A DNA stretch of 64,000 nucleotides from Nanobdellota archaeon (GTDB lineage: Archaea > Nanobdellota > Nanobdellia > Woesearchaeales > UBA11576), in NCBI GenBank assembly GCA_042576705.1, contig JBHPEY010000003.1:3438-67437 (forward strand), read 5' to 3'. The notes under the pieces are model-generated. The model did not search any database and was not told where the DNA came from. It saw only the letters and a list, made by a program, of their open reading frames with translations. Below, one piece after another: positions 1 to 53,146 of the stretch; within the stretch, counting starts at the first letter, position 1, and each line of letters starts with the position of its first letter. A program made the position numbers and the translations under genes.

Positions 1-726
1 AGACTCTGAGAGTTTCTTCACCAGGTTCTCTTTTGTCTTTGGGTGCTTCTTTACCAGGCCTTTGAGGAGTTCCCTTACCTCTCTTCTGAATGCACCTACA
101 GAGCAGGGGCAGGGTTCGTATACAATGTCCCACTTCATGGCCTCTGTGAACTTTCGGATTTCATTGTTTGTGCAGAAGTATAATGGCTTTATGCGCGGGA
201 CGAACTTGGGGTCCTCTATCATGCCTGTCCTGGGGCCCATGTTTGCGAAGAGCTCTGGCTTGCCCTTGAAGAGGTTCATCAGTATGTTCTCTGCTTCGTC
301 ATCCAGGTTGTGGCCTGTGACTATCTTTGCTGCGCCCAGTTCTCTTGCTTTCTTGTTGAGAAGCCATCTCCTCACCACTCCGCAGATCGTGCAGTTGCCT
401 ATGCGGTCTCGCTCCTGGATTGTGGATCTTATGTAGCAGATTGAAGCGCCGTGTTCTTTCCTCAGGTCTATGAGGTTCAGTTTTATCTTATGTGTCTCGC
501 AGAACGTGCGTATGTTATTGAGGTTGCGGTCAGACCAGTCGCCCATCTTGAGGTCTATCATGAGGGCTTCTACATTGTAGCCTAACTTGTTGAGAAGGTA
601 GAGTGCTGTGGTTGAGTCTTTTCCTCCAGAGCAGGCTACAAAGACCTTGTCCTTTTTGGTCAGGAGGTTGTGGTCCTTGATTGTCTTGCGTATCTTCTTC
701 TCGAAATCCTTGATGATGTCAGGCAT
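1..726 (-). CDS. PP-loop ATPase, tRNA thiolase family (TtcA/NcsA-like); C-terminus runs off the window
   Basis: My own reverse-complement translation from the ATG at 726-724 reads MPDIIKDFEKK...VFVACSGGKDSTT (SGGKDS PP-loop motif) with downstream CxxC clusters. It is absent from the ORF track because it has no stop inside the window. Confidence 0.7.
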   Translation of the reverse strand, partial: MPDIIKDFEKKIRKTIKDHNLLTKKDKVFVACSGGKDSTTALYLLNKLGYNVEALMIDLKMGDWSDRNLNNIRTFCETHKIKLNLIDLRKEHGASICYIRSTIQERDRIGNCTICGVVRRWLLNKKARELGAAKIVTGHNLDDEAENILMNLFKGKPELFANMGPRTGMIEDPKFVPRIKPLYFCTNNEIRKFTEAMKWDIVYEPCPCSVGAFRREVRELLKGLVKKHPKTKENLVKKLSES

Positions 727-743
727 GGCAGAATATTGTCTTT

Positions 744-1265
744 GTGCTGTTTATAACCTTTTCTACGTCTATTCCTGCAAAACATTTAAAAATGGATTTT
801 GCCTTGCGTTTATATATGGCAGGTTCACTAGTCGTCCAGGTAATATCAATAGTTATCGTGGCAGGTTTGTTCCTTCTTATGGTACTGTGGAAGAAAGCGC
901 ACTATGTTATCGGCGGCCTCACGCTTTGTGCCATATCGACCCTCACAGTATTGTTCAAGATAGGCAAGACCACGTTTGATGTGGGGCAGTATCCTATTCT
1001 GCATTATGCTGTCTACTTCTTTGTGGCATTTGCAGGCAAGGACCTTATCAAGGAAGGGTTCAAGGAGAAGGAGAGTGCATTGAAATGGCCCAGCCTCATC
1101 CTGGGAGTGGTGTTGATTGTCATAACTACAATCCCTACGCTGAAGAAGATGCATGTGATTGAATGGGCGCTGCCAAAGAGTGTGTATGTGGATGCGTCAA
1201 TCTATGCTATTGCAGGGCTGTTCATGATAATCGGGGCGTTCACTATACTTGCTACAAAGGAATGA
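744..1265 (+). CDS. hypothetical polytopic membrane protein (about 4 TM)
   Basis: ORF track; hydrophobic helices throughout. The start may be the internal Met near 792. Confidence 0.4.
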   Translation: MLFITFSTSIPAKHLKMDFALRLYMAGSLVVQVISIVIVAGLFLLMVLWKKAHYVIGGLTLCAISTLTVLFKIGKTTFDVGQYPILHYAVYFFVAFAGKDLIKEGFKEKESALKWPSLILGVVLIVITTIPTLKKMHVIEWALPKSVYVDASIYAIAGLFMIIGAFTILATKE

Positions 1266-1297
1266 TAGTAGAAAAAGAAAATTATGGAAAGAAAAAA

Positions 1298-1861
1298 TTA
1301 AAACTCTACCTTGACATCCTTCTTGTCTGCTTCTGAGACCTTGTACATCTCTTTCGCAGTGAGCTTCATCATGTTTGCTATGACCATGTCTGGGAAGCTC
1401 TCTATTCGGATGTTGAAGGTGTTGCAGGAGTCGTTGTAGAACTCTCTCCTGTCTGCGAGCTCGTTCTCCAGTCCTGAGATTCGCTGCTGAAGGTGCATGA
1501 AGTTCTCATTGGCCTGCAGTTTCGGATAGTTCTCTGCAACTGCGAACAATGTCTTCAGTGCGCCGGTTATCTGGTTGTCTGCTTTGGCCTTTTCCGGCAT
1601 TGATTTTGCCTTGAGGAGAGCGCTTCTTGCGTTTGTTATCTCTGTGAGGACACCTTTCTCGTGCTTCATGTAGCCTTTTACAGAGTTGATGAGTTTTGGG
1701 AGCTCGTCTGATCTCTGCTTGAGGAGGACGTTTATGTTTCCCCAGGATTTCTTTATGTTGTTCTTCAGTCTTACTAGACTGTTGTATACGCCTACAATCC
1801 ATCCTATCAGGCCTAGTAAGACTAGGATGATTACGACGGTGACTATTATTCCGACTATCAT
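1298..1861 (-). CDS. lemA: LemA family membrane protein
   Basis: N-terminal TM followed by the LemA-type helical domain (NSLVRLKN...YPKLQANENF...). Confidence 0.8.
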   Translation of the reverse strand: MIVGIIVTVVIILVLLGLIGWIVGVYNSLVRLKNNIKKSWGNINVLLKQRSDELPKLINSVKGYMKHEKGVLTEITNARSALLKAKSMPEKAKADNQITGALKTLFAVAENYPKLQANENFMHLQQRISGLENELADRREFYNDSCNTFNIRIESFPDMVIANMMKLTAKEMYKVSEADKKDVKVEF

Positions 1862-19289: not shown

Positions 19290-22230
19290 GCGCATAGGAA
19301 GTACATAAAGAACGGTTAGTACACGCGTGCTGAACACGTCGCCGAAGCTTCGTGCTTACACACCGTGCCTATCAAACGAGTCTTTTACTCGAGTTCAAGG
19401 TGTCTCTTTTTGCGGGGGGTTTCGTGCTTAGATGCTTTCAGCACTTATCCCTGAAGGCGTAGCTGCCCTGCGTACCTTGTCAGATAACAGGTAGACCAGA
19501 GGCCTCGAGCCCCCGTTCCTCTCGTACTAAGGGGTCCTTCCACTCAGACACCAAACATTTCCAGTAGATATCAAACAAACTGCCTCACAGCGTTCTGAAC
19601 CCAGCTCACGATCCCTTTTGATGGGTGAACACCCCCACCCTTGGATGCTTCTGCACATCCAGGATAGGAAGAGCCGACATCGATGTAGCAAGCCGCGCCG
19701 TCGATAAACTCCAAGCTTTCTTGTGAAAACCTGTATGAGCTCTCGGGCGCGACAACTCTGTTATCCCCGGAGTAACTTTTCGGTCATCTCTAGCTCCCAT
19801 CAAGGAAGCATAGAGGTTCGCTAGACCAAACTTTCGTTTTTGGATTCCTCATTGACCAGAATCCAATCAGGCTGGCTTTTGCTCTTGCACTCCACGGCGG
19901 ATTTCTGACCCGCCTGAGCCAACCTTAGGGCACCATTGATAAATTTTCAACGGTGTGCCACCCCAGCCAAACTGTCCACCTGCCGCTGTCCTTGTCTCCA
20001 AGTGAGCGACGTAAGTCTAGAAGAGTGGTGTTACATTTTTGTCTATTCATGATCTGGCGACCATAACATAACGACTCCCACTTACACTATACAACAAAAC
20101 TCACGTCGCAACAACAAGCTACAGTAAAGTTTCACGGGGTCTTCGCTTCCCACTGGAAATCACTGGCCTTTGCACCAGTAAAGAGTGTTCGGGGGATTCA
20201 GTCTTGGGACAGTGAGGATCTCGTTACGCCATTCATGCAGGCCGTCATTCAAACGGCAAGGCATTTCGCTACCTTAAGAGAGTTATAGTTACTCCCGCCG
20301 TTTACCAGCTCTTAGCTCCCTTGGAAGGAAGTTTGAAGTACTGGCACTGGGCAGACGTCACCTTCTGTACACACCTTTGCAGGCTAGCAGAAAGTTAAGT
20401 TTTTGTTAAACAGTCGGACCCTCTGAGTCACTGCGCCCTATGTTTGCAGTCATGCGACTACAAGCATAGGGACCCCTTATACCGAAGATACGGGGCGAAT
20501 TTGCCGAATTCCCTAAAACTGATTAATCCCTCACACCTTAGGCTTCTCACCTAGGGGCACCTGTGCTGGTTCTGGGTATGATTGCTAAAGTTCCATTCCT
20601 GTTCCTTTTTCATGGAGTCCAGGCATTGACTGAATGGACCAAAGGCCCACTATTCCCGAGTTTATTCAACTTCTCATCATTAAGATTCTCCATTGAATTG
20701 TCTTGGTTAACACAATAGATGACTTGTGTCAGTCTAGCCAGAACCGTCAGAAACAAGACTTGTGTTGCCACGTGTACTAAAGCAGTAAAGGAATCTTAAC
20801 CTTTTTCCCTTTCCCGTGTTGCCAGTTAGGCAGACGGTTAGGATCAACTTACCCTTGACTGAACTGCATTGTCAAGGAACCCTTGCCCTTTCGGTGGTAG
20901 TGATTCTCACACTACTATGATCCTACTCTCACCAGGATCCTCATTTCTACGAGGTTCACTCCCTCTCTCGAGAAAGCTTTTGCCCTCGCAGAGCGCCTAC
21001 CTACCACAATCCTTTCGGATGTCTGAAGTATCGGTAACCTGCTTAGCCCCGTCCATTTTCGGGGCCCACATTCTTGACAAGTAAGCTGTTACGCACTTAT
21101 TATAGGGTGGCTGCTTCTAAGCCAACCTCCTCGCTGTCTGTGAATGTAAACACCCTTCACCCGTTAACACTTAGCAGGTATTTTGGGACCTTAACTTCAG
21201 TCTGGGTTGTTCCCCTCTAGCTACTCACCCTTACGACGAGTACCCGTCTCCCGGAATCTACGACGTTGAAACATTCGGAGTTGGACAGGAAACCGAGGAA
21301 TTTCTTCCCCTAAATCCCCAATCCGTATCTCTACCTTTTCAACTATCTCATCCGAGGTTTGACTACGGCCAATTTTGGTAGGAACCAGCTATCACCGTGT
21401 TCGATTGGCTTTTCACCCCTAGCCCAAAGTTAGAAGACTACTTGCCCGTAAGTTCTCTGCAGGCCTCCACGGGATTTTACTCCCGCTTCACCTTACCCTG
21501 GGTTAGATCACACGGCTTCGGGTCTGGCCCAAGTGACTCAAGGCATTTTCATACCTAGTCCCTCATTGCTTGCGGACTTATTGATTTCTCTGCGGGTACC
21601 TCTTTACAAGTTACCCTTGCCACTTAGACAAACTCCCTGGCACGTTATTCAAAACGGACGTTACAACTCCGAAGAGCCGTAACCCACTATAGCTATTAGG
21701 TTTCAAGGTCTTTTAACTCCCTGTCAAGGGTTCTTTTCAACATTCCATCACTGTACTGTACGCTATCGGACTCAAGACGTGTTTAGGGTTGGAGGTTGAT
21801 GCCCCCCATATTCGTACCAAATATCCAATTGATACTACTCTGGAACTCACTAAACCTTTCTGGTTTTCCCTTACGGGACTATCACCCTTTATCGTGCTGC
21901 TTTCCAGCAGACTTCAAGTCAACCAGCGAAGGCGAAAAAGTGGTCCAAACACCACATCTCTTACATCTTTCAATGCAAGATTCAGTTTGCCCTATACGGT
22001 TTTCAGTCGCCCTTACTCACCGCATCCCAATTGGTTTCTTTTCCTGCAGGTACTAAGACGTTTCAATTCCCTGCGTTCCCTTACCTTTCGGCATTAAAGC
22101 GAAGTCGCATTAAGGCACCCCCGGTTCAAAGCATACATGCTGCTAGCCGGGGCATATCGTAGCTTGTCACGCCCTTCGTCGGCGTCTTGAGCCAAGTCAT
22201 CCACCTAATAGCTTAAATTGTACTTCCTAT
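19290..22230 (-). rRNA. rrl: 23S rRNA (ends approximate)
   Basis: Reverse complement contains the 5'-region GCCGACGAAGGGCGTGACAAGCTACGATA and the 3'-region GCTGAAAGCATCTAAGC. Length of about 2.9 kb. Confidence 0.85.
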
Positions 22231-22502: not shown

Positions 22503-22646
22503 TGGACCCGTCGGGACTTTCATGATAATGCCCCTTGAGTCACCATCTTTTCGAACCCGAGGCCCCCGCCTTGCAAGGGCGGTGCTCTTTTCCGCTCCGC
22601 GCAAACCTTCGTTCGCAGACGAAGTACCAGACTGAGCTACGGGCCC
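22503..22646 (-). tRNA. tRNA-Ala(UGC) with two non-canonical introns (D-loop and T-loop 59/60), in the 16S-23S spacer
   Basis: Exons assemble to GGGCCCGUAGCUCAGUCUGGUA|GAGCACCGCCCUUGCAAGGCGGGGGCCUCGGGUUCGAA|UCCCGACGGGUCCA. Contains the G3:U70 Ala identity pair, anticodon TGC and a perfect T-stem. Confidence 0.7.
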
Positions 22647-22761
22647 AATTAATGTAATAAAAAACGTTGGAGTGTTTGGCAAACTTTAGCATTATCCCGT
22701 CGAAGACGAGCATCGCTTATTTAGTGGTTTTTTATCTTATCATTACTGATAAAATAAAAAA

Positions 22762-24340
<1,579 letters not shown>

Positions 24341-24561
24341 TGTTATTTTGGTCGCAAGAATTGAAATTTTGGTTTGGTCGAGAAAAGAGCAATTCGTCCG
24401 TTTTATTGACTAAAACGTCCAATTATTGCTCTATGTTTGCCAAACACTCCTAATTCATACTTAACAGCATCGTGTCAAGCATACACGTTTTCTTCCTTTG
24501 AATAAAGGAGAATTATGGAGTGGATAAAACAACAAGGTAGATTCTACGGAAAAATCGGTAA

Positions 24562-25345: not shown

Positions 25346-25513
25346 TGAGCCCGCCGGGACATTCATCAAAGCTGCTTTGCGGTTCTGATTTTGAACCCGG
25401 GACCACCGGTTTACTTAAGCTGTGCGAAGCGTTGCCATATAAGACCGGCGCTCCAATTACCCGCTTTTTACGCGAGATGAGCGCTATAAGCACCAGGCTA
25501 AGCTACGGGCTCG
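25346..25513 (-). tRNA. tRNA-Ile(UAU) with three introns (D-loop, canonical 37/38, T-loop 59/60)
   Basis: Exons GAGCCCGUAGCUUAGCCUGGU|GAGCGCCGGUCUUAUA|AACCGGUGGUCCCGGGUUCAAA|UCCCGGCGGGCUCA. All stems pair and the anticodon is TAT. Confidence 0.6.
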
Positions 25514-25559: not shown

Positions 25560-26471
25560 GTGTTTGTCGGGTGTCTGGTATCAATAATTTTAATAATGTG
25601 TGCCTACTCTTTTTTTGACATGTTGGGGGATTATAATAGACGGGAGTCGTTCTATCACGCAGCGCTGATAAACTCTAAAACGGTGCGTCCGGGCACTTTA
25701 GCGGGTGAAAAGGCACTCAGGGCAAAGCTCCAGGAGCATGGCAGCTTTGAGGAGATATATCTTTCTGAGTCCGGCGGCCTTCTTGTTGATGATGAGATCA
25801 GTAGGGACAAGAGTCTTGTCAGTCTTCTGAAGCGGATTGATAAGATCAGTTTTGACTTCAGGGTCCTGACTGTGAATGATGTTGATTTCCCGCAGCACCT
25901 TAAGGATGTTGAGGGTTCTACCCCTGTGTTGTACACCTGTGGGGATGTGGGTCTTATGGATGAGCAGTCCATCTCTGTTGTTGGTACACGGAAGCTTGAG
26001 GACAGGGTTGATATCGAGGAAGGGGCAGCGGTCGTCAAGCGGCTTGTCGCAAAAGGCTATGTTGTGGTCAGCGGACTCGCAGCAGGGTGTGATACACTCG
26101 GGCACACAAAAGCGATCGAGCATGGCGGGAAGACTATTGCTGTTTTGGGGACTCCTCTTGATAGGTTCTATCCTAAAGAGAACAAGATGCTGCAGGAAAG
26201 GATTGCTGCGGAACATCTTGTCGTATCGCAGTATCCCATCGGTGTAAGGACTTTCCCTTCTTACTTTGCGCACAGGAACCTGACTACGGTGTCTTTGTCT
26301 ACGGAAGGTGTTGTTGTGGTACGTTCAGGAGACAAGAGCGGGACACAGCACGCGATACGCCACTGCGTGGCGCAGGAAAAGCCGTTGTATGTCATGGCTA
26401 ATAACTTTGGCAAGGGCTATGCCTGGGTAAAGGAGAGGAGACAATATCTCAAGGTGCCGAATGGAAGATGA
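25560..26471 (+). CDS. DprA/Smf-like Rossmann-fold protein with N-terminal TM segment
   Basis: VVSGLAAGCDTLGHTKAIEHGGKTIAVLGTPLDRFYPKENKMLQERIA matches the DprA core (SGLARGID...GG.TIAVLGTGLD..YP.EN). Confidence 0.75.
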   Translation: MFVGCLVSIILIMCAYSFFDMLGDYNRRESFYHAALINSKTVRPGTLAGEKALRAKLQEHGSFEEIYLSESGGLLVDDEISRDKSLVSLLKRIDKISFDFRVLTVNDVDFPQHLKDVEGSTPVLYTCGDVGLMDEQSISVVGTRKLEDRVDIEEGAAVVKRLVAKGYVVVSGLAAGCDTLGHTKAIEHGGKTIAVLGTPLDRFYPKENKMLQERIAAEHLVVSQYPIGVRTFPSYFAHRNLTTVSLSTEGVVVVRSGDKSGTQHAIRHCVAQEKPLYVMANNFGKGYAWVKERRQYLKVPNGR

Positions 26472-30423: not shown

Positions 30424-30858
30424 CTATATCACCTGCCTGTTGTAGTATGCCCAGCAAAGACCAAAGATCACTGCCATGCCGAGTATTCCTGTTCCTGTCG
30501 CTTGTGAAACATCCCTGAACTGGACCCATCCATTTGAAGAGGCCCATCCTATTATCAGTATCCACCAAACAGAGATCAGGAATGCTTTGGATCCTGCAAG
30601 TGTCATCACTTTATTTGATCTTTCGTCATGGGCTGGAAATCCTTTCTTGACGTCTGTGTATCGCTTTTTCAAGAAAATAATGAGCGCCACTAATACAATC
30701 ACTCCGATGATCAACGCGACAGCTGATTCTGTTATCTGTCCTTTTCTGAAGACTGTTATCGCAAACAATACAAAGGTTGAGAAGAGCAATAAGGCTAAGA
30801 TCCCTACTGTGAGGATCTTTATCTTGTCCTGTTCTTTTGGATTATTTTTTGTTTTCAT
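30424..30858 (-). CDS. membrane protein (DUF2178-like paralogue)
   Basis: ORF track; 4 TM. Confidence 0.4.
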   Translation of the reverse strand: MKTKNNPKEQDKIKILTVGILALLLFSTFVLFAITVFRKGQITESAVALIIGVIVLVALIIFLKKRYTDVKKGFPAHDERSNKVMTLAGSKAFLISVWWILIIGWASSNGWVQFRDVSQATGTGILGMAVIFGLCWAYYNRQVI

Positions 30859-35129: not shown

Positions 35130-35316
35130 GTCATGACTATTTCTTGCCGGTTCGATTTAAACATAGTTGGCTTGTTCTGTTTTCCTTTATGGTATATACA
35201 ATATATGCCTGGATTTTTTGGCTGTTTATCTCGTCACTGTTGTTGTTCGGTGACCAATGGTGATAGAGGTCAGGCGTTTCAAAAAATTTATATATGAATA
35301 AATCAACTCTATACTC

Positions 35317-35535
35317 ATGCCGCCGAAAAAAAAGAAGGTGAAACGAGCAAAGGCAACAGAGGAAGCGACTGGTCAGAGGGAATCCAAAAGACGGAAGGAC
35401 TGTCCTGACTGCGGGAGTGTCAACATACTCTTTGACGCAGACACAGAGCAGATCATATGCCATGATTGCGGACTCATGTTCGAGGAGATTCCGCCAGAAT
35501 TTGCAAAACGGTATGATGAGATAGAATTCCTTTAG
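35317..35535 (+). CDS. small basic zinc-ribbon protein (TFIIB-type ribbon)
   Basis: CPDCGS...ICHDCGL; Lys-rich N-terminus. Confidence 0.4.
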   Translation: MPPKKKKVKRAKATEEATGQRESKRRKDCPDCGSVNILFDADTEQIICHDCGLMFEEIPPEFAKRYDEIEFL

Positions 35536-36691: not shown

Positions 36692-38638
36692 ATGGCATTT
36701 GAGTCTAAACCTATCACTTTCGAGGAATTCATCGATCAAGTTAAAGAGCACAATCCTAATGCTAATTTCAAGCTCATAGAGAAGGCATACAGGTTTGCTG
36801 AGCAGGCTCATAAAGGGCAGAAGAGGAGTTCTGGAGAGGCGTTCTTTGTGCACCCGCTTGAGGTAGGGCGCATACTAATCCATCTCAAGGCAGACAGTGC
36901 CACGATCTGCGCAGCACTATTGCACGACACAGTAGAGGATACAAGCACGTCAACAAAGACTGTGCGGGATGAGTTCGGCAAGGAGATAGCAGGCCTTGTA
37001 TCAGGCATGACCAAGATAACCGGCAAAAAATACGAATCAAAGGAGGATTACAAGGCAGAGAACCTGCGGAAGATACTGCTGGCAACTACCAAGGACATCA
37101 GGGTCATCCTCATCCGGCTCGCGGACAGGCTGCACAACATGAGGACGCTCGCGACATTCCGCTCAGACAAGCGGAAGAGGATAGCGCATGAGACCCTTGA
37201 GATATATGCGCCTATCGCGCACAAGCTTGGCATGTGGCGGCTGAAAGGTGAGCTGGAGGATCTGTCATTTAGGTATCTTGATTATGATACCTATGTCCGG
37301 CTTAAGGAGAGCATTGCAGAGAAACGGGTGCAGCGAGAGCAGGCCACTTCAAAGATAGTCAGCATGATCAGGGAGTCACTCCAGGAAAAGAACATAGAAT
37401 CGGATGTGTTCGGCAGGGCGAAATACTTCTACTCAATCTACAAGAAGATGAAGAAGAAGCAGAGGGACTTTGACCAGATATACGACCTGATCGCCATCAG
37501 GATAATAGTCAACACCATCCCTGAATGCTATAAATCACTCGAGATCATACACACGCTTTTCGAGCCGCAGCTGGAACGGTTCAAGGACTACATCCAGCAC
37601 TCTAAAGCGAACGGCTACCAGTCTATACACACTTCTGTAATATATGGACGGAAGATCATAGAGGTGCAGATCAGGACGCACGCGATGCACGCCATTGCAG
37701 AGGCAGGGATAGCGGCGCACTGGAAATACAAAGGAACAGAGAAGGACAAGGCATTCGACAGGAAGATCATGTGGCTCAAGCAGATACTTGAATGGCTGAA
37801 CAAGTCAAAGAATGCGCGGGATTTTGTGGAGACATTGAAGATAGACCTTTTCGAGAATGAGATCATCGTGCTGACTCCCAAGGGTGACCCGATATCGCTG
37901 CCAGAAGGGGCGACACCTGTCGACTTCGCATATGCTGTGCATACAGGCGTAGGCAACCACTGCTCCAAGGCAAAGGTCAATGACAGGATAGAGCCGTTGG
38001 ATCATCCGCTCAACAGCGGGGATGTCGTCGAGATAATGACAAGCAACAATGCGAAGCCTTCACGGGGATGGCTGAATTTCGCTGTCACTTCAAAGGCAAA
38101 GAGCAAGATCCGTTCATTCCTGGGTATAGAGTTTGATCACAAGCCGCGGGAAGCGGCTGCTTCTTCTGATTACGATAAGATAAAGCCGCACCTTGACAGG
38201 TTCATAAAGATACTCGGCAAGAAAGCGCCGCTCAAGCTGTCGAAGTGCTGCCAGCCAGGTTTCAATGACAGCATCATCGGGCTCAACACAAAAGACGGCA
38301 AGATAACCATCCACAAGAGTGACTGCATCAATGTACATAGTGTCGATGAATCTAAGCAGGTCAAGCTTGAGTGGGTGAAGCCTGAAGACAGCAATGTCCG
38401 TAAGCTTAAGGTCTATGTGACTGAGAGGCCGGGTGTGCTTGCGGATCTTCTTAACCTTATGGCTGTAGAGAAGGTATCTGTTAAATCTGTGAATACAAGG
38501 GTCCGGAAGAAGAAGATAATGCTTACGTTTAAGATAGAGGTGGATGAGGATGAAGAGCTTGAGCGAATTGTTGACAAGCTTAACGCGTTGCGGGACGTGA
38601 GTAATGTCAAGGTGGATGAGCAGGGGATAGGGGTTTGA
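36692..38638 (+). CDS. long RelA/SpoT homologue (HD hydrolase + (p)ppGpp synthetase + TGS + ACT domains)
   Basis: HD motif (HDTVEDT), synthetase motif (YQSIHTSV...EVQIRT), TGS domain (LTPKGDPISLPEGATPVDFAY) and C-terminal ACT. Confidence 0.85.
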   Translation: MAFESKPITFEEFIDQVKEHNPNANFKLIEKAYRFAEQAHKGQKRSSGEAFFVHPLEVGRILIHLKADSATICAALLHDTVEDTSTSTKTVRDEFGKEIAGLVSGMTKITGKKYESKEDYKAENLRKILLATTKDIRVILIRLADRLHNMRTLATFRSDKRKRIAHETLEIYAPIAHKLGMWRLKGELEDLSFRYLDYDTYVRLKESIAEKRVQREQATSKIVSMIRESLQEKNIESDVFGRAKYFYSIYKKMKKKQRDFDQIYDLIAIRIIVNTIPECYKSLEIIHTLFEPQLERFKDYIQHSKANGYQSIHTSVIYGRKIIEVQIRTHAMHAIAEAGIAAHWKYKGTEKDKAFDRKIMWLKQILEWLNKSKNARDFVETLKIDLFENEIIVLTPKGDPISLPEGATPVDFAYAVHTGVGNHCSKAKVNDRIEPLDHPLNSGDVVEIMTSNNAKPSRGWLNFAVTSKAKSKIRSFLGIEFDHKPREAAASSDYDKIKPHLDRFIKILGKKAPLKLSKCCQPGFNDSIIGLNTKDGKITIHKSDCINVHSVDESKQVKLEWVKPEDSNVRKLKVYVTERPGVLADLLNLMAVEKVSVKSVNTRVRKKKIMLTFKIEVDEDEELERIVDKLNALRDVSNVKVDEQGIGV

Positions 38639-43279: not shown

Positions 43280-43562
43280 GCGTTTTTTGTTAATTTTTTA
43301 TTCTTTAATTTTATATATGATGCTGACTTCTATACTTCTGGGAAGTATGTTGAGCTATGCTTCGAGGGCAGAATCCAGTTCTGACCCTGTTGTTTACTCT
43401 TAATCACTTCTCAGTGATTAAAACCGTAAATTTTATATATCTGAGGTCATTGTTTATGATAGTTTCAGGGAACAACAAGGGGAAGCAAAAGGGAGCGATT
43501 ATTGAGTCATACTGTTCTATGCAGTGACTGATGAGCTTGAAATAAGACCAATAGGTGGTAAG

Positions 43563-46500
43563 ATGTCTGAAGGAAATGATGATACAAAGGTTGTTTGGGA
43601 CCAGGAAGCTATCAAGAGATGGGCCTGGCGCGTGCGAGAGATGTGGGCACAGCATCTCGGATCTAAAAGACTTCCTGATTCTGCTCTACCTGAAGCAGTG
43701 CTGAAGCATGCTTCAAAGATTGATTCTAAGGCCCCTTCGTGGAAACATGTACGTGCGGCTTATGGAGGCATAGCCCCTCTGGTACAAGCTGTTGAGGAGA
43801 AATACAACCGATGGAATGAAGACGAATGCGCTGTCTGGGGCTGGACGCTCAGGGAGCAGCTTTCCCAGGAGAGGGTGGCGAGAGGTGAAGAGACTTGTTC
43901 ACTTACAATCACAGATATTGTCAATGGCCTGCGGCAGGATGAGGATGCGCCTCTTCCTGAGACACTTGCCAGAGTGTATGGTAGTGATGTGCAAAGCATG
44001 ATCGATACTGTCGAACAGTTCTATGGATTGTCAAAAGGACGTAGTGCAGCACAGGCTGAAGAGGATGCGTTTGAGACAAAAGCTACTGCTGCTTTCGAAA
44101 GGCTCGACGAGGACAGAGATACAGATGTACTTGCAGACTCTCCTCCGGAAGAGAAGACACAACCGCTTTCTATGATTGCAAGCGCTATACAGGATCCTGA
44201 CGAGAGATACCAGGCTGCCAAGAGTGTCTGGAGAAAAGGCGGCAAGGTCATCGGTTCGGAACAGGAATTGGCCGAGCTTGAGATACATGATTCACTGCAG
44301 ACACCTGCAGAGGCGCATGATGAGAAAGTCGTCACTCTTGTAAATGATTTCATCTACTTACGGCAGCAGAGGGATGGGCCGCTCACTGAAGAGGATATTG
44401 AAACACACCTCGGTTCACTCAATGCATTCAATGCAGTATTCCACAGTCTCAACCGTGCTGAAGATGCTTACCAGATGGGTCAGAGGCACAGGGAACAGGT
44501 CACTGAAAGGAAGAGGATAATGGGGAGGGTACAGCTAGAAGAGCGAGAAGTACCGTCGGAACAGCCGAAACGGTTGAGAAAGATAAAGAACACACTGCAG
44601 GGAATGACTTCAGAGTATTCCTTTACATCCAGAGATCAGATACAGCATATACAGCAGGACTCGGCTGAAGGAGCAAAGGGGACCACGCTTGAGGGTGTGG
44701 GGCCGGAGCAGCAGTCAGAGTCACATCCAATACTTATGGGGATTGAACCTGAGCAAGCTCTTGCAAGACCAGAGCCTGGTGAGCTTGATGGTATTCCACA
44801 GACAGTCGTAGGCATGGGTCACGGAGAGCTGCGTGATATTCCAAAGACAACCCCTGGCTTTGGTGCAGAAAGCATAGAGGACGCGAATGACCTCAGAGTA
44901 TCAGGCGGGCCTAATCATGATGATGGGGCCTACAACACAAATCTCGCAAGTGCGCGGTCGATGAAGACTGCGGAGGATGTACGTGGGATCGCAAGGGAAC
45001 TTGGCTATACAGATGTTGAGGTCGGTGGTGAAGGCCCTGATGAATCTGAAGAGCATGAGGCCATAACGCACCCTGGCGGGAAGTTGCCAGGACTGGTGTC
45101 CGACGACGCTACAGAGGAACCTGCAGATGAAGATTATGAGTATACACCGGTCACCCTTCCGCAGGATGACCAGCCTGTCTTTGGCCAGTTTCAGGATGCA
45201 TTCCAGAAGCTGAGCGAAAAGGATCAGGAGGCTATCCTGGATGCTGCTTTGCAGAATGGCAAGGGTCATGCAGATGAGCCTACATTGGAAGACCAGATGC
45301 ATGAAGGGGATAATACAGAAGACATCACGGTCAAGAGACAGTATACTGCAGGTACATCTGAACCGGAATCTGTCGAACCTACAGGTCGTGTTGGTTCGGA
45401 AAGTGATGATACTGAGTTTGATGCCAACCCTGACACAAATGTGCCTTTTGAGCCGAGGCATGTACAGTCTTTTTTACAGCACTCTATCGATCAGATGAAG
45501 GAACACGCAGAACAAGGAGAGGGTCCCGAAGCGCAGGATGCATCACTTGATGCCCCGCAGAGTATGGGTACTGAAGTGGTTGGTGAGGAGCCTGTCACTG
45601 AACAGAGCGTGAACCGCAGGTTTGATCTCTCTGCGACTGGCCATACAGAAGAAGTTCCTTTTGACCAGCTTGCCCAGGCGAAACAGGGATATGCAGGCGA
45701 TATACCTGAGAGTGAGCTTGCAACAAAGAGTGATGTCATCTCTTCTGATCCTAGCGGTCCAACAGAGACCTCAGGCACCATCAACATATCAAAGCAATCC
45801 GCTGACCCTGGTGACAAGTCCATAGAGGCTAAGGTCGCGCAGGAACCCGCTGCAGAGAATGGCGGTGAGAGGGAGCGGAGCCCTACGCCCATGTCCGGGC
45901 AGGTATATGATCCTATGAAGCCTTCAGACACTGTGAAGCGGGCCATGCAGAGACAGATAGATGAGCTCAACAAGAGAGAGGCACAGGGGAAGACTGTCAA
46001 GAAAGAGAAGAAGTCCTGGAGCAGAAGCAAGAAGATGGTGGCAGCAGTCGCTGCTGGTGTCGGCGTCTTTGCTTTAGGCGGTGCAATCCTTTACTCTTCC
46101 TTCACGACACCTGACAAGGATATCTCCAACATGGTGGCTGCAAGCAATCAGTATGGAGTTATCGCTTCATTTGATGCTGGAACAAGAAGCATCGATGCTG
46201 CTGTTGACGCAATCGGTGCGGTTGCATATTCTAGTGATGCTGGAGAGGGAATGCAGACACCTGCAGTCGCTACAGCGTCTGCGGAAGAACCTGAGCCTAA
46301 GGTCGATAAGGCCGAGCCTAAAATACCGGGCATGCATCCGGAGAGGGCATGTAATCTCAGGCTTCAGATGGGATTTGATGATGTAAAGTATTCGAGTGCA
46401 AGTGCTGAGCAAGACCTTGAGGATTATGTCAGTTCCATGCTCAAGTCGGGCAAGAGGAAATTCAAGGTTTTTGGCACGGCAAGCATCGAGGATGCGAATG

Positions 46501-48335
46501 ACCTCAAGGTGTCAGGCGGGCCCCATCATGATGATGGAGACTACAACACCAAGCTCGCAGAGCAGCGGGCGATGAAGACTGTGGAGGACATACGCAGTAT
46601 CGCAAGGAACCTCGGCTATACAGACGTTGAGGTCGATGGTGAAGGCTGGTCAGAGAAGGATCTCTGGGCAAAGGGCAAAGATCCGCGAAGCCTTGCGCAG
46701 AACAGGGGTGTGTTTGTATCGACTGACTGGGTGCTGGATCCTGACCTTGAGGAAACTATCAGGGATGTGGTCGAGGACTATTCGTTCGGCGAGATGAACG
46801 GTGAGAGCTGTCCAGACGGAACAGGTGACGGCAGCAAAGGAAGCATGAACCAGCAGGATAATGCGCCTGATGATAATTTCATGCCTGATATTGATGATTC
46901 AGATGATGATTCATCTGACGGGACAGAGGCATATGCAGACAATTCAGATTCAATAGACCACCTTACAGGGATACAGAGGACTGTGGTGCATGACCGCATG
47001 GGCAAGTACCTCGATGGGGCAATCACCTGGTTTGAGCTGCGTGAAGATGTCGCGGAGTATGGAGTCCCGTATATTACAGGCGAAGAGGCATTGCAGGTCC
47101 ATGAGCTGCTCTCTGACGGAGTGGAAGCTACAGATAAGGTTGATTATGCTGTGCTCTCTTCGGGTTTCGTTGAGGGTGCCTGGTCAGATGAGGTGCTGAT
47201 GACCGAGGTTGCACCTGGCTATGCTTCAGAGAGGTTGGTCGGTAAGATACTGGAACAGGTGGAGAATCAGCAGTGTTCAAACGATACTGATGATGATGTC
47301 CTGTTCACACTCGACAAGTACGAGCAGCTGAAGACAGATAAAGCTCTCGCAGAAGCTGATGCTGATGATCCTGATGAGGAGATACCCAGCCTTCTGTATG
47401 AGGTCTCTGATGATACTGTGCTGTCTGCAGGGTTTGTTGATAATTCCCAGTCGGATCAAGAGGAAGCGATAATCGCTGAACTTCTGCCGGCCTATGCTGC
47501 AGATAAGTGCGTTGAAAACCTGAGGGCAGAGGCTGACAGCCAGCAGTCTTCAGATGCTGGTGATTCCGGCAAGGGGTCCGGCCTTTTGTATGTGGTTTCG
47601 GATGATACTGTGTTGTCTTCAGGGTTTATTGAGGATGCTCCGTCGGATGAAGAGTTGGTTGATGAGGTCCTGCCAGGGTATGCGCTACATAGGCGTGTTG
47701 AGAACAGAAGGCAGGATGAGAACCGCCGGGCTTCGGAAGTCATTGAGGATCTTACCAAAGACTTTGATGAGGCTAACCCTGATGCTTGTGCGACCCGGTC
47801 AGCGCTTTCCCTGCTCCAGTCCGAAGACACAGAACCAGATGATTACAATGTCGAGGGTAATGGCGATCCAGAGTATGACTCTGCCAAGGTAGCTGCTGAG
47901 GTCAAGGAAATGCAGAAGCAAGAGAAGGAAAGGGCACAGGATGTACTCGCCGATATCTTGTCAGATGTTGATAGAGAGTGTGCCAAGAGCGAGGCAGAGC
48001 GTGATTATATACCTCAGTATGGTGTTTTTGAGATAGATGCTCTCGGTGAGCTGCACTATGACTATGCAGAGTTCGAGGATGTCGACAGGATGGCAAGGAT
48101 CCATGGCATAGATAACTTCGGCAAGACAGTCCCCAAGCATGATTTCGCAAGATGGGCTACGATAGTTGAGCTCAGCAAGATGGATGATTGCGAGTGCGAT
48201 GAAGTGGGTGGGGCACTCTATGGGCTGAAAGAGATTGCGCAGAACCAGGATGTTGTTGCGCTTGAGAGGCCTGAGTCCAAGCCTAATCCTGAGCCAGAAG
48301 GCGCAGCACTTGAAGATTATCTCATGGCTGCATAA
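43563..48335 (+). CDS. giant acidic repeat protein (about 1,590 aa) with a single central TM helix
   Basis: Longest ORF in the window. One TM (MVAAVAAGVGVFALGGAILYSSF) near residue 840. Internal repeats on both sides of it (SIEDANDL[RK]VSGGP[NH]HDDG.YNT.LA...YTDVEV.GEG; three copies of TVLS[AS]GF[VI][ED]...). No recognisable catalytic domain. Confidence 0.6.
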   Translation: MSEGNDDTKVVWDQEAIKRWAWRVREMWAQHLGSKRLPDSALPEAVLKHASKIDSKAPSWKHVRAAYGGIAPLVQAVEEKYNRWNEDECAVWGWTLREQLSQERVARGEETCSLTITDIVNGLRQDEDAPLPETLARVYGSDVQSMIDTVEQFYGLSKGRSAAQAEEDAFETKATAAFERLDEDRDTDVLADSPPEEKTQPLSMIASAIQDPDERYQAAKSVWRKGGKVIGSEQELAELEIHDSLQTPAEAHDEKVVTLVNDFIYLRQQRDGPLTEEDIETHLGSLNAFNAVFHSLNRAEDAYQMGQRHREQVTERKRIMGRVQLEEREVPSEQPKRLRKIKNTLQGMTSEYSFTSRDQIQHIQQDSAEGAKGTTLEGVGPEQQSESHPILMGIEPEQALARPEPGELDGIPQTVVGMGHGELRDIPKTTPGFGAESIEDANDLRVSGGPNHDDGAYNTNLASARSMKTAEDVRGIARELGYTDVEVGGEGPDESEEHEAITHPGGKLPGLVSDDATEEPADEDYEYTPVTLPQDDQPVFGQFQDAFQKLSEKDQEAILDAALQNGKGHADEPTLEDQMHEGDNTEDITVKRQYTAGTSEPESVEPTGRVGSESDDTEFDANPDTNVPFEPRHVQSFLQHSIDQMKEHAEQGEGPEAQDASLDAPQSMGTEVVGEEPVTEQSVNRRFDLSATGHTEEVPFDQLAQAKQGYAGDIPESELATKSDVISSDPSGPTETSGTINISKQSADPGDKSIEAKVAQEPAAENGGERERSPTPMSGQVYDPMKPSDTVKRAMQRQIDELNKREAQGKTVKKEKKSWSRSKKMVAAVAAGVGVFALGGAILYSSFTTPDKDISNMVAASNQYGVIASFDAGTRSIDAAVDAIGAVAYSSDAGEGMQTPAVATASAEEPEPKVDKAEPKIPGMHPERACNLRLQMGFDDVKYSSASAEQDLEDYVSSMLKSGKRKFKVFGTASIEDANDLKVSGGPHHDDGDYNTKLAEQRAMKTVEDIRSIARNLGYTDVEVDGEGWSEKDLWAKGKDPRSLAQNRGVFVSTDWVLDPDLEETIRDVVEDYSFGEMNGESCPDGTGDGSKGSMNQQDNAPDDNFMPDIDDSDDDSSDGTEAYADNSDSIDHLTGIQRTVVHDRMGKYLDGAITWFELREDVAEYGVPYITGEEALQVHELLSDGVEATDKVDYAVLSSGFVEGAWSDEVLMTEVAPGYASERLVGKILEQVENQQCSNDTDDDVLFTLDKYEQLKTDKALAEADADDPDEEIPSLLYEVSDDTVLSAGFVDNSQSDQEEAIIAELLPAYAADKCVENLRAEADSQQSSDAGDSGKGSGLLYVVSDDTVLSSGFIEDAPSDEELVDEVLPGYALHRRVENRRQDENRRASEVIEDLTKDFDEANPDACATRSALSLLQSEDTEPDDYNVEGNGDPEYDSAKVAAEVKEMQKQEKERAQDVLADILSDVDRECAKSEAERDYIPQYGVFEIDALGELHYDYAEFEDVDRMARIHGIDNFGKTVPKHDFARWATIVELSKMDDCECDEVGGALYGLKEIAQNQDVVALERPESKPNPEPEGAALEDYLMAA

Positions 48336-51876: not shown

Positions 51877-53146
51877 ATTCTGGTAATTCGCTCCTCTGTT
51901 TATCTTTTCTTTCTTTTGTTAAGTGTGTAAGCGCCCTAAGCATGAATTCTCTTTGAGGTACATATACATCTTCATAAATTGCTCGGTGGATATTGTGATT
52001 CACTGTCCGAGAGTCTGCTGCTTCTTTAATATAGTCTGCGGCGGTTTCACCATCATAAGTCATCCCTATGAACCTATCGACGAAAGCCTTTTCTCTATCT
52101 TCAAGTCCTTTATGCGCGAATTCCAGGAATGATATGCAGTATTCATTATTTTCTGTATTATTAAGACCGTATCTTGCTGCGTCATCGTGTAATCTTTTCA
52201 GTTTCTTAGAATCTCCCTTAAGGTCGTCTTTCATGAGAACACTTTCAAGCAGAGGATTTGTCACACCTTTTACGTCTCCAGATCTTATTCGTCTCATACC
52301 GCCTTCGAGTAAGGTCAGGTATGCTATGAGATTGTATAGGTAGGGATTCGATCCTGCAGTCCTGGCTTCGACTGTGCTGTGTTTTGGACTCAACCTAACC
52401 GGACCTGAAATGCTGCAATATTCATCATAATAGTCTAATTCAGTGAAAATATGCCCGTTTTCTACAGCTCTCTGCTTGAATTTTTTAAATTCTGCTTTCA
52501 CTTCTGCTTCATGTTCTTCAAGGCTTCTTTTAAGATCCTGCATCTGTCCTTGATACGGGAGTTTTCTGTGAGCAATATTTCTGTAGTTGTGAATCCTCCA
52601 GTTATGGAAGCCTTCAATTGGCGATGCAGATGTCAGCAGAATTGTAACAGGGTCTGAAGCTGTAAGATAGTTCATCTGGTCAATGACTTTTCCTTCTTCC
52701 TGTGAGAAGTGTATGTGGGTCCCATTGACTTTTGTTTTTATTTCAAGACCGTCCAGTCCAATTGTTTTAGTGATTAATCCTGCAACATCTGAATCATGTC
52801 TTCTTTCGTGCTCATATGGGATGAGTGATGTATCGAGGGGAAGAGTTAACAGGCCGGCGCCTTTTGCAATTTCATCCAGGCGTTTGGCTCTTTTCATGAG
52901 ATCAAGGGCTGTTTCAAAGATATTGTTGTGTGGTTCTGTGACTGTTTCTACTGAAGCTAGGCTGATTTCTTGGTGGTATCCTTCAGCTTTACCGATTCCG
53001 TTGATAATCTCATCTGCTTGGGGTGTGGGTATACCATCTTTGTCAAGTAGCAGGACTTCAAGTTCCATTCCTGTTTTGTCCAATGTTTTAGGTTCGAATT
53101 GACCCTCAATTGGTTCTAGAATTCGTAAAAATACGTTATTTGGCAT
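51809..53146 (-). CDS. glutamate-cysteine ligase family 2 (GCS2 / YbdK-type carboxylate-amine ligase) with C-terminal extension
   Basis: GMELEVLLLD (compare G.E.EF.LVD) and GTHIHFS (compare GLHVHVG). Confidence 0.7.
   Translation of the reverse strand: MPNNVFLRILEPIEGQFEPKTLDKTGMELEVLLLDKDGIPTPQADEIINGIGKAEGYHQEISLASVETVTEPHNNIFETALDLMKRAKRLDEIAKGAGLLTLPLDTSLIPYEHERRHDSDVAGLITKTIGLDGLEIKTKVNGTHIHFSQEEGKVIDQMNYLTASDPVTILLTSASPIEGFHNWRIHNYRNIAHRKLPYQGQMQDLKRSLEEHEAEVKAEFKKFKQRAVENGHIFTELDYYDEYCSISGPVRLSPKHSTVEARTAGSNPYLYNLIAYLTLLEGGMRRIRSGDVKGVTNPLLESVLMKDDLKGDSKKLKRLHDDAARYGLNNTENNEYCISFLEFAHKGLEDREKAFVDRFIGMTYDGETAADYIKEAADSRTVNHNIHRAIYEDVYVPQREFMLRALTHLTKERKDKQRSELPEYVRRKTQEQGSLAGLREELVFA

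Follow-up and report, generated by a model that had tools for sequence, protein, structure and literature searches.

Between the 16S and 23S ribosomal RNA (rRNA) genes of a Nanobdellota archaeon lies an alanine tRNA gene that is interrupted twice. The stretch that we analysed, hereafter the window, comprises 64,000 nucleotides (nt) of contig JBHPEY010000003.1 (assembly GCA_042576705.1, positions 3,438 to 67,437). The 16S rRNA, tRNA-Ala(UGC) and 23S rRNA genes follow one another on its minus strand in the archaeal layout. The tRNA gene, read from 22646 to 22503, sits inside a 535-nt spacer; it starts 118 nt past the 16S gene and ends 274 nt ahead of the 23S gene. This is the setting of an archaeal rRNA-operon spacer tRNA-Ala, and the same layout is found in 14 related loci. 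Open reading frames (ORFs) in the spacer, on either strand, span at most 110 amino acids (aa) and are short mechanical ones that overlap the RNA genes. A first-pass annotation of this DNA had quoted three exons within these limits and read them as a spacer tRNA-Ala(UGC) with a G3:U70 identity pair and with inserts of 37 and 33 nt. We found the exons exactly where they had been placed and add the strand, and both insert lengths hold, as does the location of both inserts outside the canonical 37/38 position.

Joined, the three exons reduce a precursor body of 144 nt to a 74-nt product, which ARAGORN calls as tRNA-Ala(tgc) with a flawless cloverleaf, bearing out the proposed identity. The spliced product has the G3:U70 pair as well as U8, A14, G18G19, A21, U33 and the T-loop UUCGAAU, and CCA is absent from the encoded gene. 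In its interrupted form the gene escapes standard tools: ARAGORN makes no call on the unspliced gene, whether in the window or on the precursor alone, and the unspliced locus has no Rfam tRNA match at the gathering threshold or at E ≤ 1. The coordinates of the gene, its parts and the other RNA features discussed below are collected in Table 1.

Table 1. RNA features of the rRNA operon region, in window coordinates, with the basis of each assignment.
Feature	Position	Strand	Basis
Interrupted tRNA-Ala(UGC)	22503..22646	-	Exons located and spliced; ARAGORN
Exon 1, positions 1-20: acceptor 5' strand, D-stem 5' strand, D-loop to U20	22626..22646	-	Bulge-helix-bulge (BHB) register, cut after precursor nt 21
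Intron 1, 37 nt, D-loop 20/21, relaxed BHB	22589..22625	-	Minimum free energy (MFE) fold, BHB scoring, shuffles
Exon 2, positions 21-59: D-stem 3' strand, anticodon arm (UGC), variable loop, T-stem 5' strand, T-loop to A59	22550..22588	-	
Intron 2, 33 nt, T-loop 59/60, near-canonical hBHBh'	22517..22549	-	BHB scoring, shuffles
Exon 3, positions 60-73: U60, T-stem 3' strand, acceptor 3' strand with U70, discriminator A73	22503..22516	-	
16S rRNA gene, upstream of tRNA-Ala	22764..24340	-	Rfam RF01959, 1426 bits
23S rRNA gene, downstream of tRNA-Ala	19296..22228	-	Rfam RF02540, 2627 bits
16S processing stem, 5' strand (GGAGUGUUUGGCAAAC)	24435..24450	-	duplexfold/cofold; pairs with 22684-22669
16S processing stem, 3' strand (GUUUGCCAAACACUCC), ends 23 nt upstream of tRNA-Ala	22669..22684	-	duplexfold/cofold
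108-nt BHB intron within 16S	23506..23613	-	Alignment to three DPANN 16S genes; BHB scoring
tRNA-Ile(UAU), three introns, about 1 kb upstream of 16S	25346..25512	-	Custom scan, BHB scoring, shuffles

Both inserts are bounded by structures of the kind that the archaeal splicing endonuclease recognizes: two 3-nt bulges on opposite strands with a 4-bp helix between them, cut between the second and third bulge nucleotides. We placed the splice sites by this cleavage rule, which is established knowledge of the hBHBh' (helix-bulge-helix-bulge-helix) motif and yields the canonical 37/38 site; the anticodon intron of a nearby tRNA-Ile gene served as internal control. For intron 1, the motif is already present in the unconstrained MFE fold of the precursor (-63.9 kcal/mol, z = -3.1). 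Its central helix, UCUG/CGGA, joins D-loop nucleotides 16-18 to the 3' end of the intron with four of four pairs, at ensemble probabilities of 0.90-0.99. Bulges GU|A and AA|A flank this helix, the D-stem (GCUC/GAGC) supplies the outer helix, and an inner helix of 6 bp is capped by a further 6-bp hairpin. For intron 2, the 5-bp T-stem is the outer helix, the central helix again has four of four pairs (U54U55C56G57 with UGAA) between bulges AA|A and AG|U, and an inner helix of 7 bp lies beyond an A.A mismatch. The cloverleaf and both motifs can form together at -58.1 kcal/mol. Secondary-structure prediction had been put forward as a check on the junctions, and each of them does carry a BHB-like structure, relaxed at intron 1 and near-canonical at intron 2.

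The same rule amends one detail of the first-pass annotation. Its 59/60 site for the second intron stands, as does an insert in the D-loop, whereas the D-loop cut belongs at 20/21 rather than at 21/22. We rejected the 21/22 register, which leaves only one of four central pairs; the preferred 20/21 register sets the limits of intron 1 given in Table 1. The mature sequence is the same under either register, since the A at the boundary can be assigned to either side.

Chance rarely produces such geometry. With the splice sites fixed, we shuffled each intron 20,000 times and counted the shuffles with a complete central helix and an inner helix at least as long as that observed. Fractions of only 7.5 × 10−4 (intron 1) and 5 × 10−5 (intron 2) matched. 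Moreover, the junction of exons 2 and 3, GGTTCGAA^TCCCGACGGGTCCA, reads exactly like the uninterrupted T-arm of two homologues, L013 and L015. Given this rarity among shuffles, the identity of the junction to uninterrupted homologues and a conservation confined to the exons (below), the locus is a genuine tRNA gene beyond chance.

Homologues were sought among GTDB species representatives with a pattern for tRNA-Ala(UGC) carrying any D-loop insert of 16-46 nt, which returned 15 loci. One, on an Acidobacteriota contig (L009), was discarded, its match being due to a duplicated 5' segment and not to an intron. The other 14 are archaeal and mostly labelled Woesearchaeota or Nanoarchaeia; the remaining labels include "Euryarchaeota archaeon SM23-78", a "Methanosarcinales" metagenome-assembled genome (MAG), an unclassified "archaeon" MAG and one locus labelled Coxiellaceae that is archaeal in type. 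In all 14, the interrupted tRNA-Ala gene lies within the 16S-23S spacer. The D-loop intron stands alone in L008 and L014, is joined by a 37/38 intron in L012, L013 and L015, and is joined by a 59/60 intron, as in the window, in L005, L006, L010 and L011; all three introns are present in L002, L003, L004, L007 and probably L001. The central helix of the D-loop intron has four of four pairs in 13 of 15 genes, the window's included. About nine homologues have a 59/60 intron at the same site and with the same geometry as in the window, and every 59/60 intron scored with a clean 3' end shows the T-stem plus UUCR/YGAA arrangement.

Selection appears to act on the exons. The spliced exons share 86-96% identity with those of the homologues, the acceptor and anticodon stems show compensatory changes and G3:U70 is invariant, though 16S identity between the window and these genomes is only 74-84%. 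Intron identity, by comparison, is at the shuffle baseline, save in L003, whose D-loop intron reaches 0.81 where the baseline is 0.55. Conserved exons, freely varying introns with BHB geometry retained, and a cloverleaf restored by cutting within BHB junctions are what archaeal BHB tRNA introns show. The 23S genes of these relatives have additions of their own: Rfam group I intron matches occur in two Woesearchaeota MAGs (L001:1950-2246 and L012:2319-2614), and several related 23S genes exceed the Rfam model by 200-800 nt.

The introns are also shared beyond tRNA-Ala. In a metagenome scan, a pattern common to L003 and the window matched just two loci. The first has a tRNA-Ala gene identical to that of L003. 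The other (L020; SDBT01014699.1, reverse strand from about 8103) is a tRNA-Lys(UUU) gene outside any rRNA operon, with a D-loop intron homologous to intron 1 and a further 18-nt intron at 59/60. Aligned, the three homologous introns (window, L003 and L020) show one compensatory change in the inner helix (C-G / U-A / C-G) together with compatible one-sided changes. The sequence similarity suggests either transfer of the intron between tRNA species or gene conversion of the D-arm. A recurring pattern of intron insertion, which the first-pass annotation had surmised from two genes, is thus borne out in 14 other spacers of DPANN-type MAGs and in one tRNA-Lys gene.

A DprA-like ORF beside the operon is 100% identical to the NCBI entry "DprA [Nanoarchaeota archaeon]", and its next matches, at 50-60%, are MAG proteins of Woesearchaeota and Pacearchaeota. 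Among the DprA relatives sampled for synteny, the closest is L016 (GCA_964563755.1, CAZLYC010000010.1, positions 1-1750, reverse strand; 60% DprA identity), whose contig stops where the rRNA operon would begin; L017-L019 and L022-L024 have no rRNA nearby. The tRNA-Ile(UAU) gene of L016 has a 37/38 intron alone, and its tRNA-Glu gene has a D-loop insert that the tRNA-Glu gene of the window lacks; ARAGORN detected neither of the two L016 genes. Given these differences from the window, introns must be gained and lost quickly. Judged by such comparisons, they appear to move or be copied between tRNA species and to form a population with fast turnover in this lineage.

We are confident that the window encodes a functional spacer tRNA-Ala(UGC) of a DPANN archaeon (Nanoarchaeota/Woesearchaeota-type) with two protein-spliced archaeal introns. 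The exons, the cloverleaf, the BHB geometry and its excess over shuffles, the conservation of exons and not introns, and the recurrence of the architecture are all read directly from the DNA. We infer which enzymes splice, that cleavage takes place, that the gene is transcribed together with the rRNAs and in what order the steps follow. The gene would be transcribed as a precursor, probably inside a 16S-tRNA-23S transcript. Each junction would fold as a BHB, with D-loop nucleotides 16-18 or T-loop nucleotides 54-57 pairing with the 3' end of the intron in a 4-bp helix flanked by two 3-nt bulges, the D-stem or T-stem as outer helix and the intron hairpin as inner helix. The endonuclease EndA would then cut between bulge nucleotides 2 and 3, at 20/21 and 59/60, and an RtcB-type ligase would join the exons and circularise the introns. 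RNase P, tRNase Z and the CCA-adding enzyme would finish maturation.

Several points weigh against this reading. The motif at intron 1 is relaxed, since A14 and G15, across from the 3' bulge, form no pairs and offset the D-stem by 2 nt. At intron 2, the A/U-rich central helix is marginal by itself, with a pair probability of about 0.1 without protein. Pfam scans of 43 of the 65 listed window ORFs (those of at least 150 aa) found neither EndA (PF01974/PF02778) nor RtcB. Finally, the homologue pattern demands a D-loop insert, so the 15 loci give no frequency of the trait among DPANN spacers.

A second interrupted gene lies close by. The tRNA-Ile(UAU) gene upstream of the 16S gene has three introns: one of 34-36 nt in the D-loop (19/20 or 20/20a), a canonical one of 26 nt at 37/38, and one of 30 nt at 59/60 with a strict hBHBh' motif (shuffle P values of 1.5 × 10−4 to 1.6 × 10−3 for the three). 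ARAGORN and Rfam both missed it. A genome-encoded UAU anticodon for isoleucine is unusual in archaea, where CAU with agmatidine is the norm. The tRNA-Ala introns had been said to occupy the same two positions as those of this tRNA-Ile. The match is exact at 59/60; the D-loop sites are close but not identical, and the tRNA-Ile gene has a third intron besides. We rejected the naive D-loop junction GGUG^GAGC, at which there is no BHB; cuts consistent with a BHB give GG^UUGGAGC or GGU^AUUGGAGC. In the tRNA-Ile of L016, the uninterrupted D-loop reads GGUGGAGC, and the BHB-consistent D-loop of the window gene is 1-3 nt longer, leaving the exact splice register of its mature D-loop ambiguous. Between this gene and the 16S gene lies an uninterrupted tRNA-Glu(UUC).

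The 16S gene itself is interrupted. It is about 100 nt overlong, and alignment locates a 108-nt insert that is absent from the 16S genes of L008, L013 and L015. The insert is bounded by a canonical BHB, with a central helix UUAG/CUAA (four of four pairs), bulges AU|A and UU|A and an inner helix of 12 bp. Its excision restores the universal sequence GGAUUAGAU^ACCC and with it the universal motif GGAUUAGAUACCC, as expected of archaeal BHB introns in rRNA. This mini-intron would break a standard 16S primer site.

A shared endonuclease raises the question of whether splicing of the spacer tRNA is linked to rRNA maturation. The first-pass annotation had suggested that the two may be coupled within one primary transcript. 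Spelled out, removal of the tRNA introns would be tied mechanistically to the release of pre-16S and pre-23S at BHBs, the same endonuclease acting on several such motifs in a coordinated manner. The arrangement is suggestive: the tRNA lies close to both rRNA genes on the same strand, the 16S gene carries a canonical BHB intron, and EndA cuts BHBs in the rRNA processing stems of Haloferax and other archaea (PMC7714728). Inverted repeats do flank the 16S gene. The two strands listed in Table 1 form a perfect 16-bp helix with more pairing beyond, which ends just upstream of the tRNA, and next to it (24427-24450 with 22669-22691) is a relaxed BHB-like element consisting of a 4-nt bulge (AUAG), a 4-bp helix (AGCA/UGCU) and a 4 × 3 internal loop (AUAA/AAA), which in form resembles the relaxed D-loop BHB. 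Around the 23S gene, pairing is limited to 9 nt on each side, AUGCGCGGU immediately past the 3' end and GCCGUGCAU immediately ahead of the 5' end, and we saw no stem extending further.

A canonical BHB in the processing stems is what this coupling lacks. A strict scan of the window and of 7-8 related DPANN loci found none in the 16S or 23S stems above the level of shuffled flanks, with a simple scanner that relaxed motifs may escape. The best scores were 8 for 16S (shuffle mean about 8, maximum 11-15) and 8-9 for 23S (mean about 8). The relaxed 16S element is thus the sole candidate, and the proposed coupling, as stated, is unsupported by the sequence. Furthermore, a common enzyme does not imply coupling, and L020 has the same type of intron in a tRNA-Lys outside any rRNA operon. 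Oligo-T tracts are archaeal termination signals. A run of nine T residues (22755-22763, minus strand) followed by ATTTT stands directly past the 3' end of the 16S gene and could attenuate read-through, such that transcription into the spacer tRNA-Ala may be partial. We therefore regard coordinated excision as unlikely. With a BHB intron in its 16S, the operon transcript is still likely to need the endonuclease, and, by the same kind of motif, the two tRNA-Ala introns would need it too.

A broader proposal would make the D-loop (19/20 to 20/21) and 59/60 introns a mobile BHB-intron population of Nanoarchaeota and Woesearchaeota that copies itself among tRNA genes (Ala, Lys, Ile and Glu) and into rRNA, with EndA acting on the operon transcript through the internal introns of the 16S and of the spacer tRNA and through relaxed internal-loop BHBs instead of canonical stem BHBs. 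We consider this full scheme a long shot. If it were true, splicing of tRNA-Ala would be an obligatory, ordered step of ribosome biogenesis.

The gene might alternatively be a decaying pseudogene, with two insertions, a transcript that is never spliced and alanine decoding left to another gene. Consistent with that, standard tRNA finders miss it, neither EndA nor RtcB turned up among the window ORFs scanned, and, with 64 kb of the genome in view, a second tRNA-Ala(UGC) could exist elsewhere. Decay is hard to reconcile, however, with intact exons in which every conserved tRNA nucleotide is present, with the purifying-selection pattern of exon identity and compensatory stem changes set against far more diverged 16S genes, with inserts whose BHB geometry is far above chance, or with an interrupted architecture kept in 14 other archaeal MAGs. 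We judge a pseudogene very improbable.

Group I and group II introns are typically longer than 200 nt. Self-splicing by these or other ribozyme introns, which the group I introns in the 23S genes of L001 and L012 and their reported wide occurrence in archaea (PMC6125680) might bring to mind, is effectively refuted by inserts of only 33 and 37 nt with no covariance-model match (no Rfam intron or ribozyme family in the spacer at E ≤ 1) and with the geometry of a protein-endonuclease substrate, and retention of the inserts in the mature tRNA would break the tertiary contact of the D-loop and T-loop (G18G19 with U55C56).

The interrupted tRNA-Ala shares the window with other features that stand apart from it. 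A scan for interrupted tRNAs by acceptor and T-arm also picked out several segments that we took as chance pairs, among them 30609-30795, 52244-52481 and 35216-35329 (all plus strand), the last of which has no tRNA features. A full-length (p)ppGpp synthetase/hydrolase of the RelA/SpoT type, with HD, RelA_SpoT, TGS and ACT domains, is encoded at 36692-38638 on the plus strand and is kept in the syntenic relative L016; the gene looks bacterial and may have reached this archaeon through lateral transfer. The DprA-like gene (25560-26471, plus strand) has its closest non-DPANN homologues in Vibrio and enterobacterial DprA, at about 50% identity, a similarity that hints at inter-domain transfer in this family. 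An ORF of 1603 aa at 43524-48335 (plus strand) has no Pfam match, and GC and AT skew are strongly positive at 40-42 kb and 44-46 kb, in the region of this ORF.

The interrupted spacer tRNA-Ala is real and mechanistically ordinary for archaea; it belongs to an under-annotated lineage and occupies an uncommon genomic position. Published work already covers tRNAs with several introns, the 59/60 site, introns in the D-arm and the disruption of tRNAs in DPANN, and current understanding is not overturned. The consequences are first of all for annotation, as ARAGORN and the Rfam tRNA model miss both the spacer tRNA-Ala and the three-intron tRNA-Ile(UAU) entirely. The BHB models of tRNAscan-SE were trained on Cren-, Eury- and Thaumarchaeota (PMC8450103), and missing tRNAs are treated solely as loss or split genes in a 2026 survey that covers 208 complete Nanobdellota genomes (bioRxiv 10.64898/2026.05.13.725050). 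Because finders miss such genes and the BHB models come from other phyla, tRNAs reported as "missing" from DPANN and Nanobdellota (PMC5829648; bioRxiv 10.64898/2026.05.13.725050) may often be multi-intron genes and not cases of loss or splitting. One to three EndA cuts would be needed by the spacer tRNA-Ala in each of at least 15 deeply diverged DPANN-type genomes. The fast turnover of these introns and their sharing among tRNA species extend the picture of intron transposition past the Thermoproteales. An operon that contains several EndA substrates without obvious canonical stem BHBs is also a useful test case for rRNA processing in reduced archaea.

We found no paper in open-access text that describes an intron-bearing spacer tRNA-Ala in these lineages. 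To our knowledge, euryarchaeal spacer tRNAs have been described without introns, and Crenarchaeota normally have no spacer tRNAs. In its layout the window resembles operons of the Haloferax type, with the order 16S-tRNA-Ala(UGC)-23S, long inverted repeats around the 16S gene and a transcript that would depend on EndA. In Haloferax and other archaea, EndA releases pre-16S and pre-23S by cutting BHBs within their processing stems (PMC7714728). Those stem BHBs are clear and canonical, whereas here none is detectable in the stems and the substrates are instead two tRNA introns and a BHB intron in the 16S.

Among tRNAs with several introns, the best-known cases are those of Thermoproteales and others, in which a gene may have up to three introns with BHB or relaxed BHB motifs (Sugahara et al. 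2007/2008; PMC4033280, PMC4090602, PMC8450103), and similar introns in different tRNA species have been read as intron transposition (Fujishima 2010, cited in PMC4033280). The window shares with them several short non-canonical introns per tRNA, strict or relaxed BHBs, removal by EndA as the presumed route, and sharing between tRNA species. The lineages differ, Crenarchaeota there and DPANN here, as does the position of the present gene in a 16S-23S spacer. The enzymes are likely to differ too: the crenarchaeal endonuclease is (alpha-beta)2 with a crenarchaeal loop, and the one acting here is probably alpha4 with an L3 loop (after PMC5829648). DPANN lineages, Woese- and Pacearchaeota among them, have an alpha4 EndA with an "L3" loop, which has been tied to markedly more disrupted tRNAs and to incomplete predicted tRNA sets (PMC5829648).

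A D-arm intron is known from Methanopyrus kandleri, where an HBh' intron in pre-tRNA-Glu(UUC) is processed and RNA-seq shows the mature tRNA (PMC5829648). As in the window, a D-arm intron with a relaxed BHB coexists with a further intron of the same gene; the M. kandleri gene is from another phylum, encodes a different tRNA, has its intron at another exact site and does not lie in an rRNA spacer. The 59/60 site has its closest parallel in ARMAN-2 (Micrarchaeota, DPANN), in which pre-tRNA-Cys is interrupted at 59/60 and tRNA-Pro at 53/54 and 59/60, a tRNA-Ile(UAU) has a 37/38 intron, and EndA cleaves the 59/60 introns in vitro (PMC3239211). Both organisms are thus DPANN archaea with the 59/60 site and with two introns in one tRNA. 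The ARMAN-2 enzyme is a three-unit epsilon2 EndA and its 59/60 example is of the relaxed hBH form, whereas the 59/60 BHB of the window is nearly strict and belongs to a spacer tRNA-Ala with an added intron in its D-loop.

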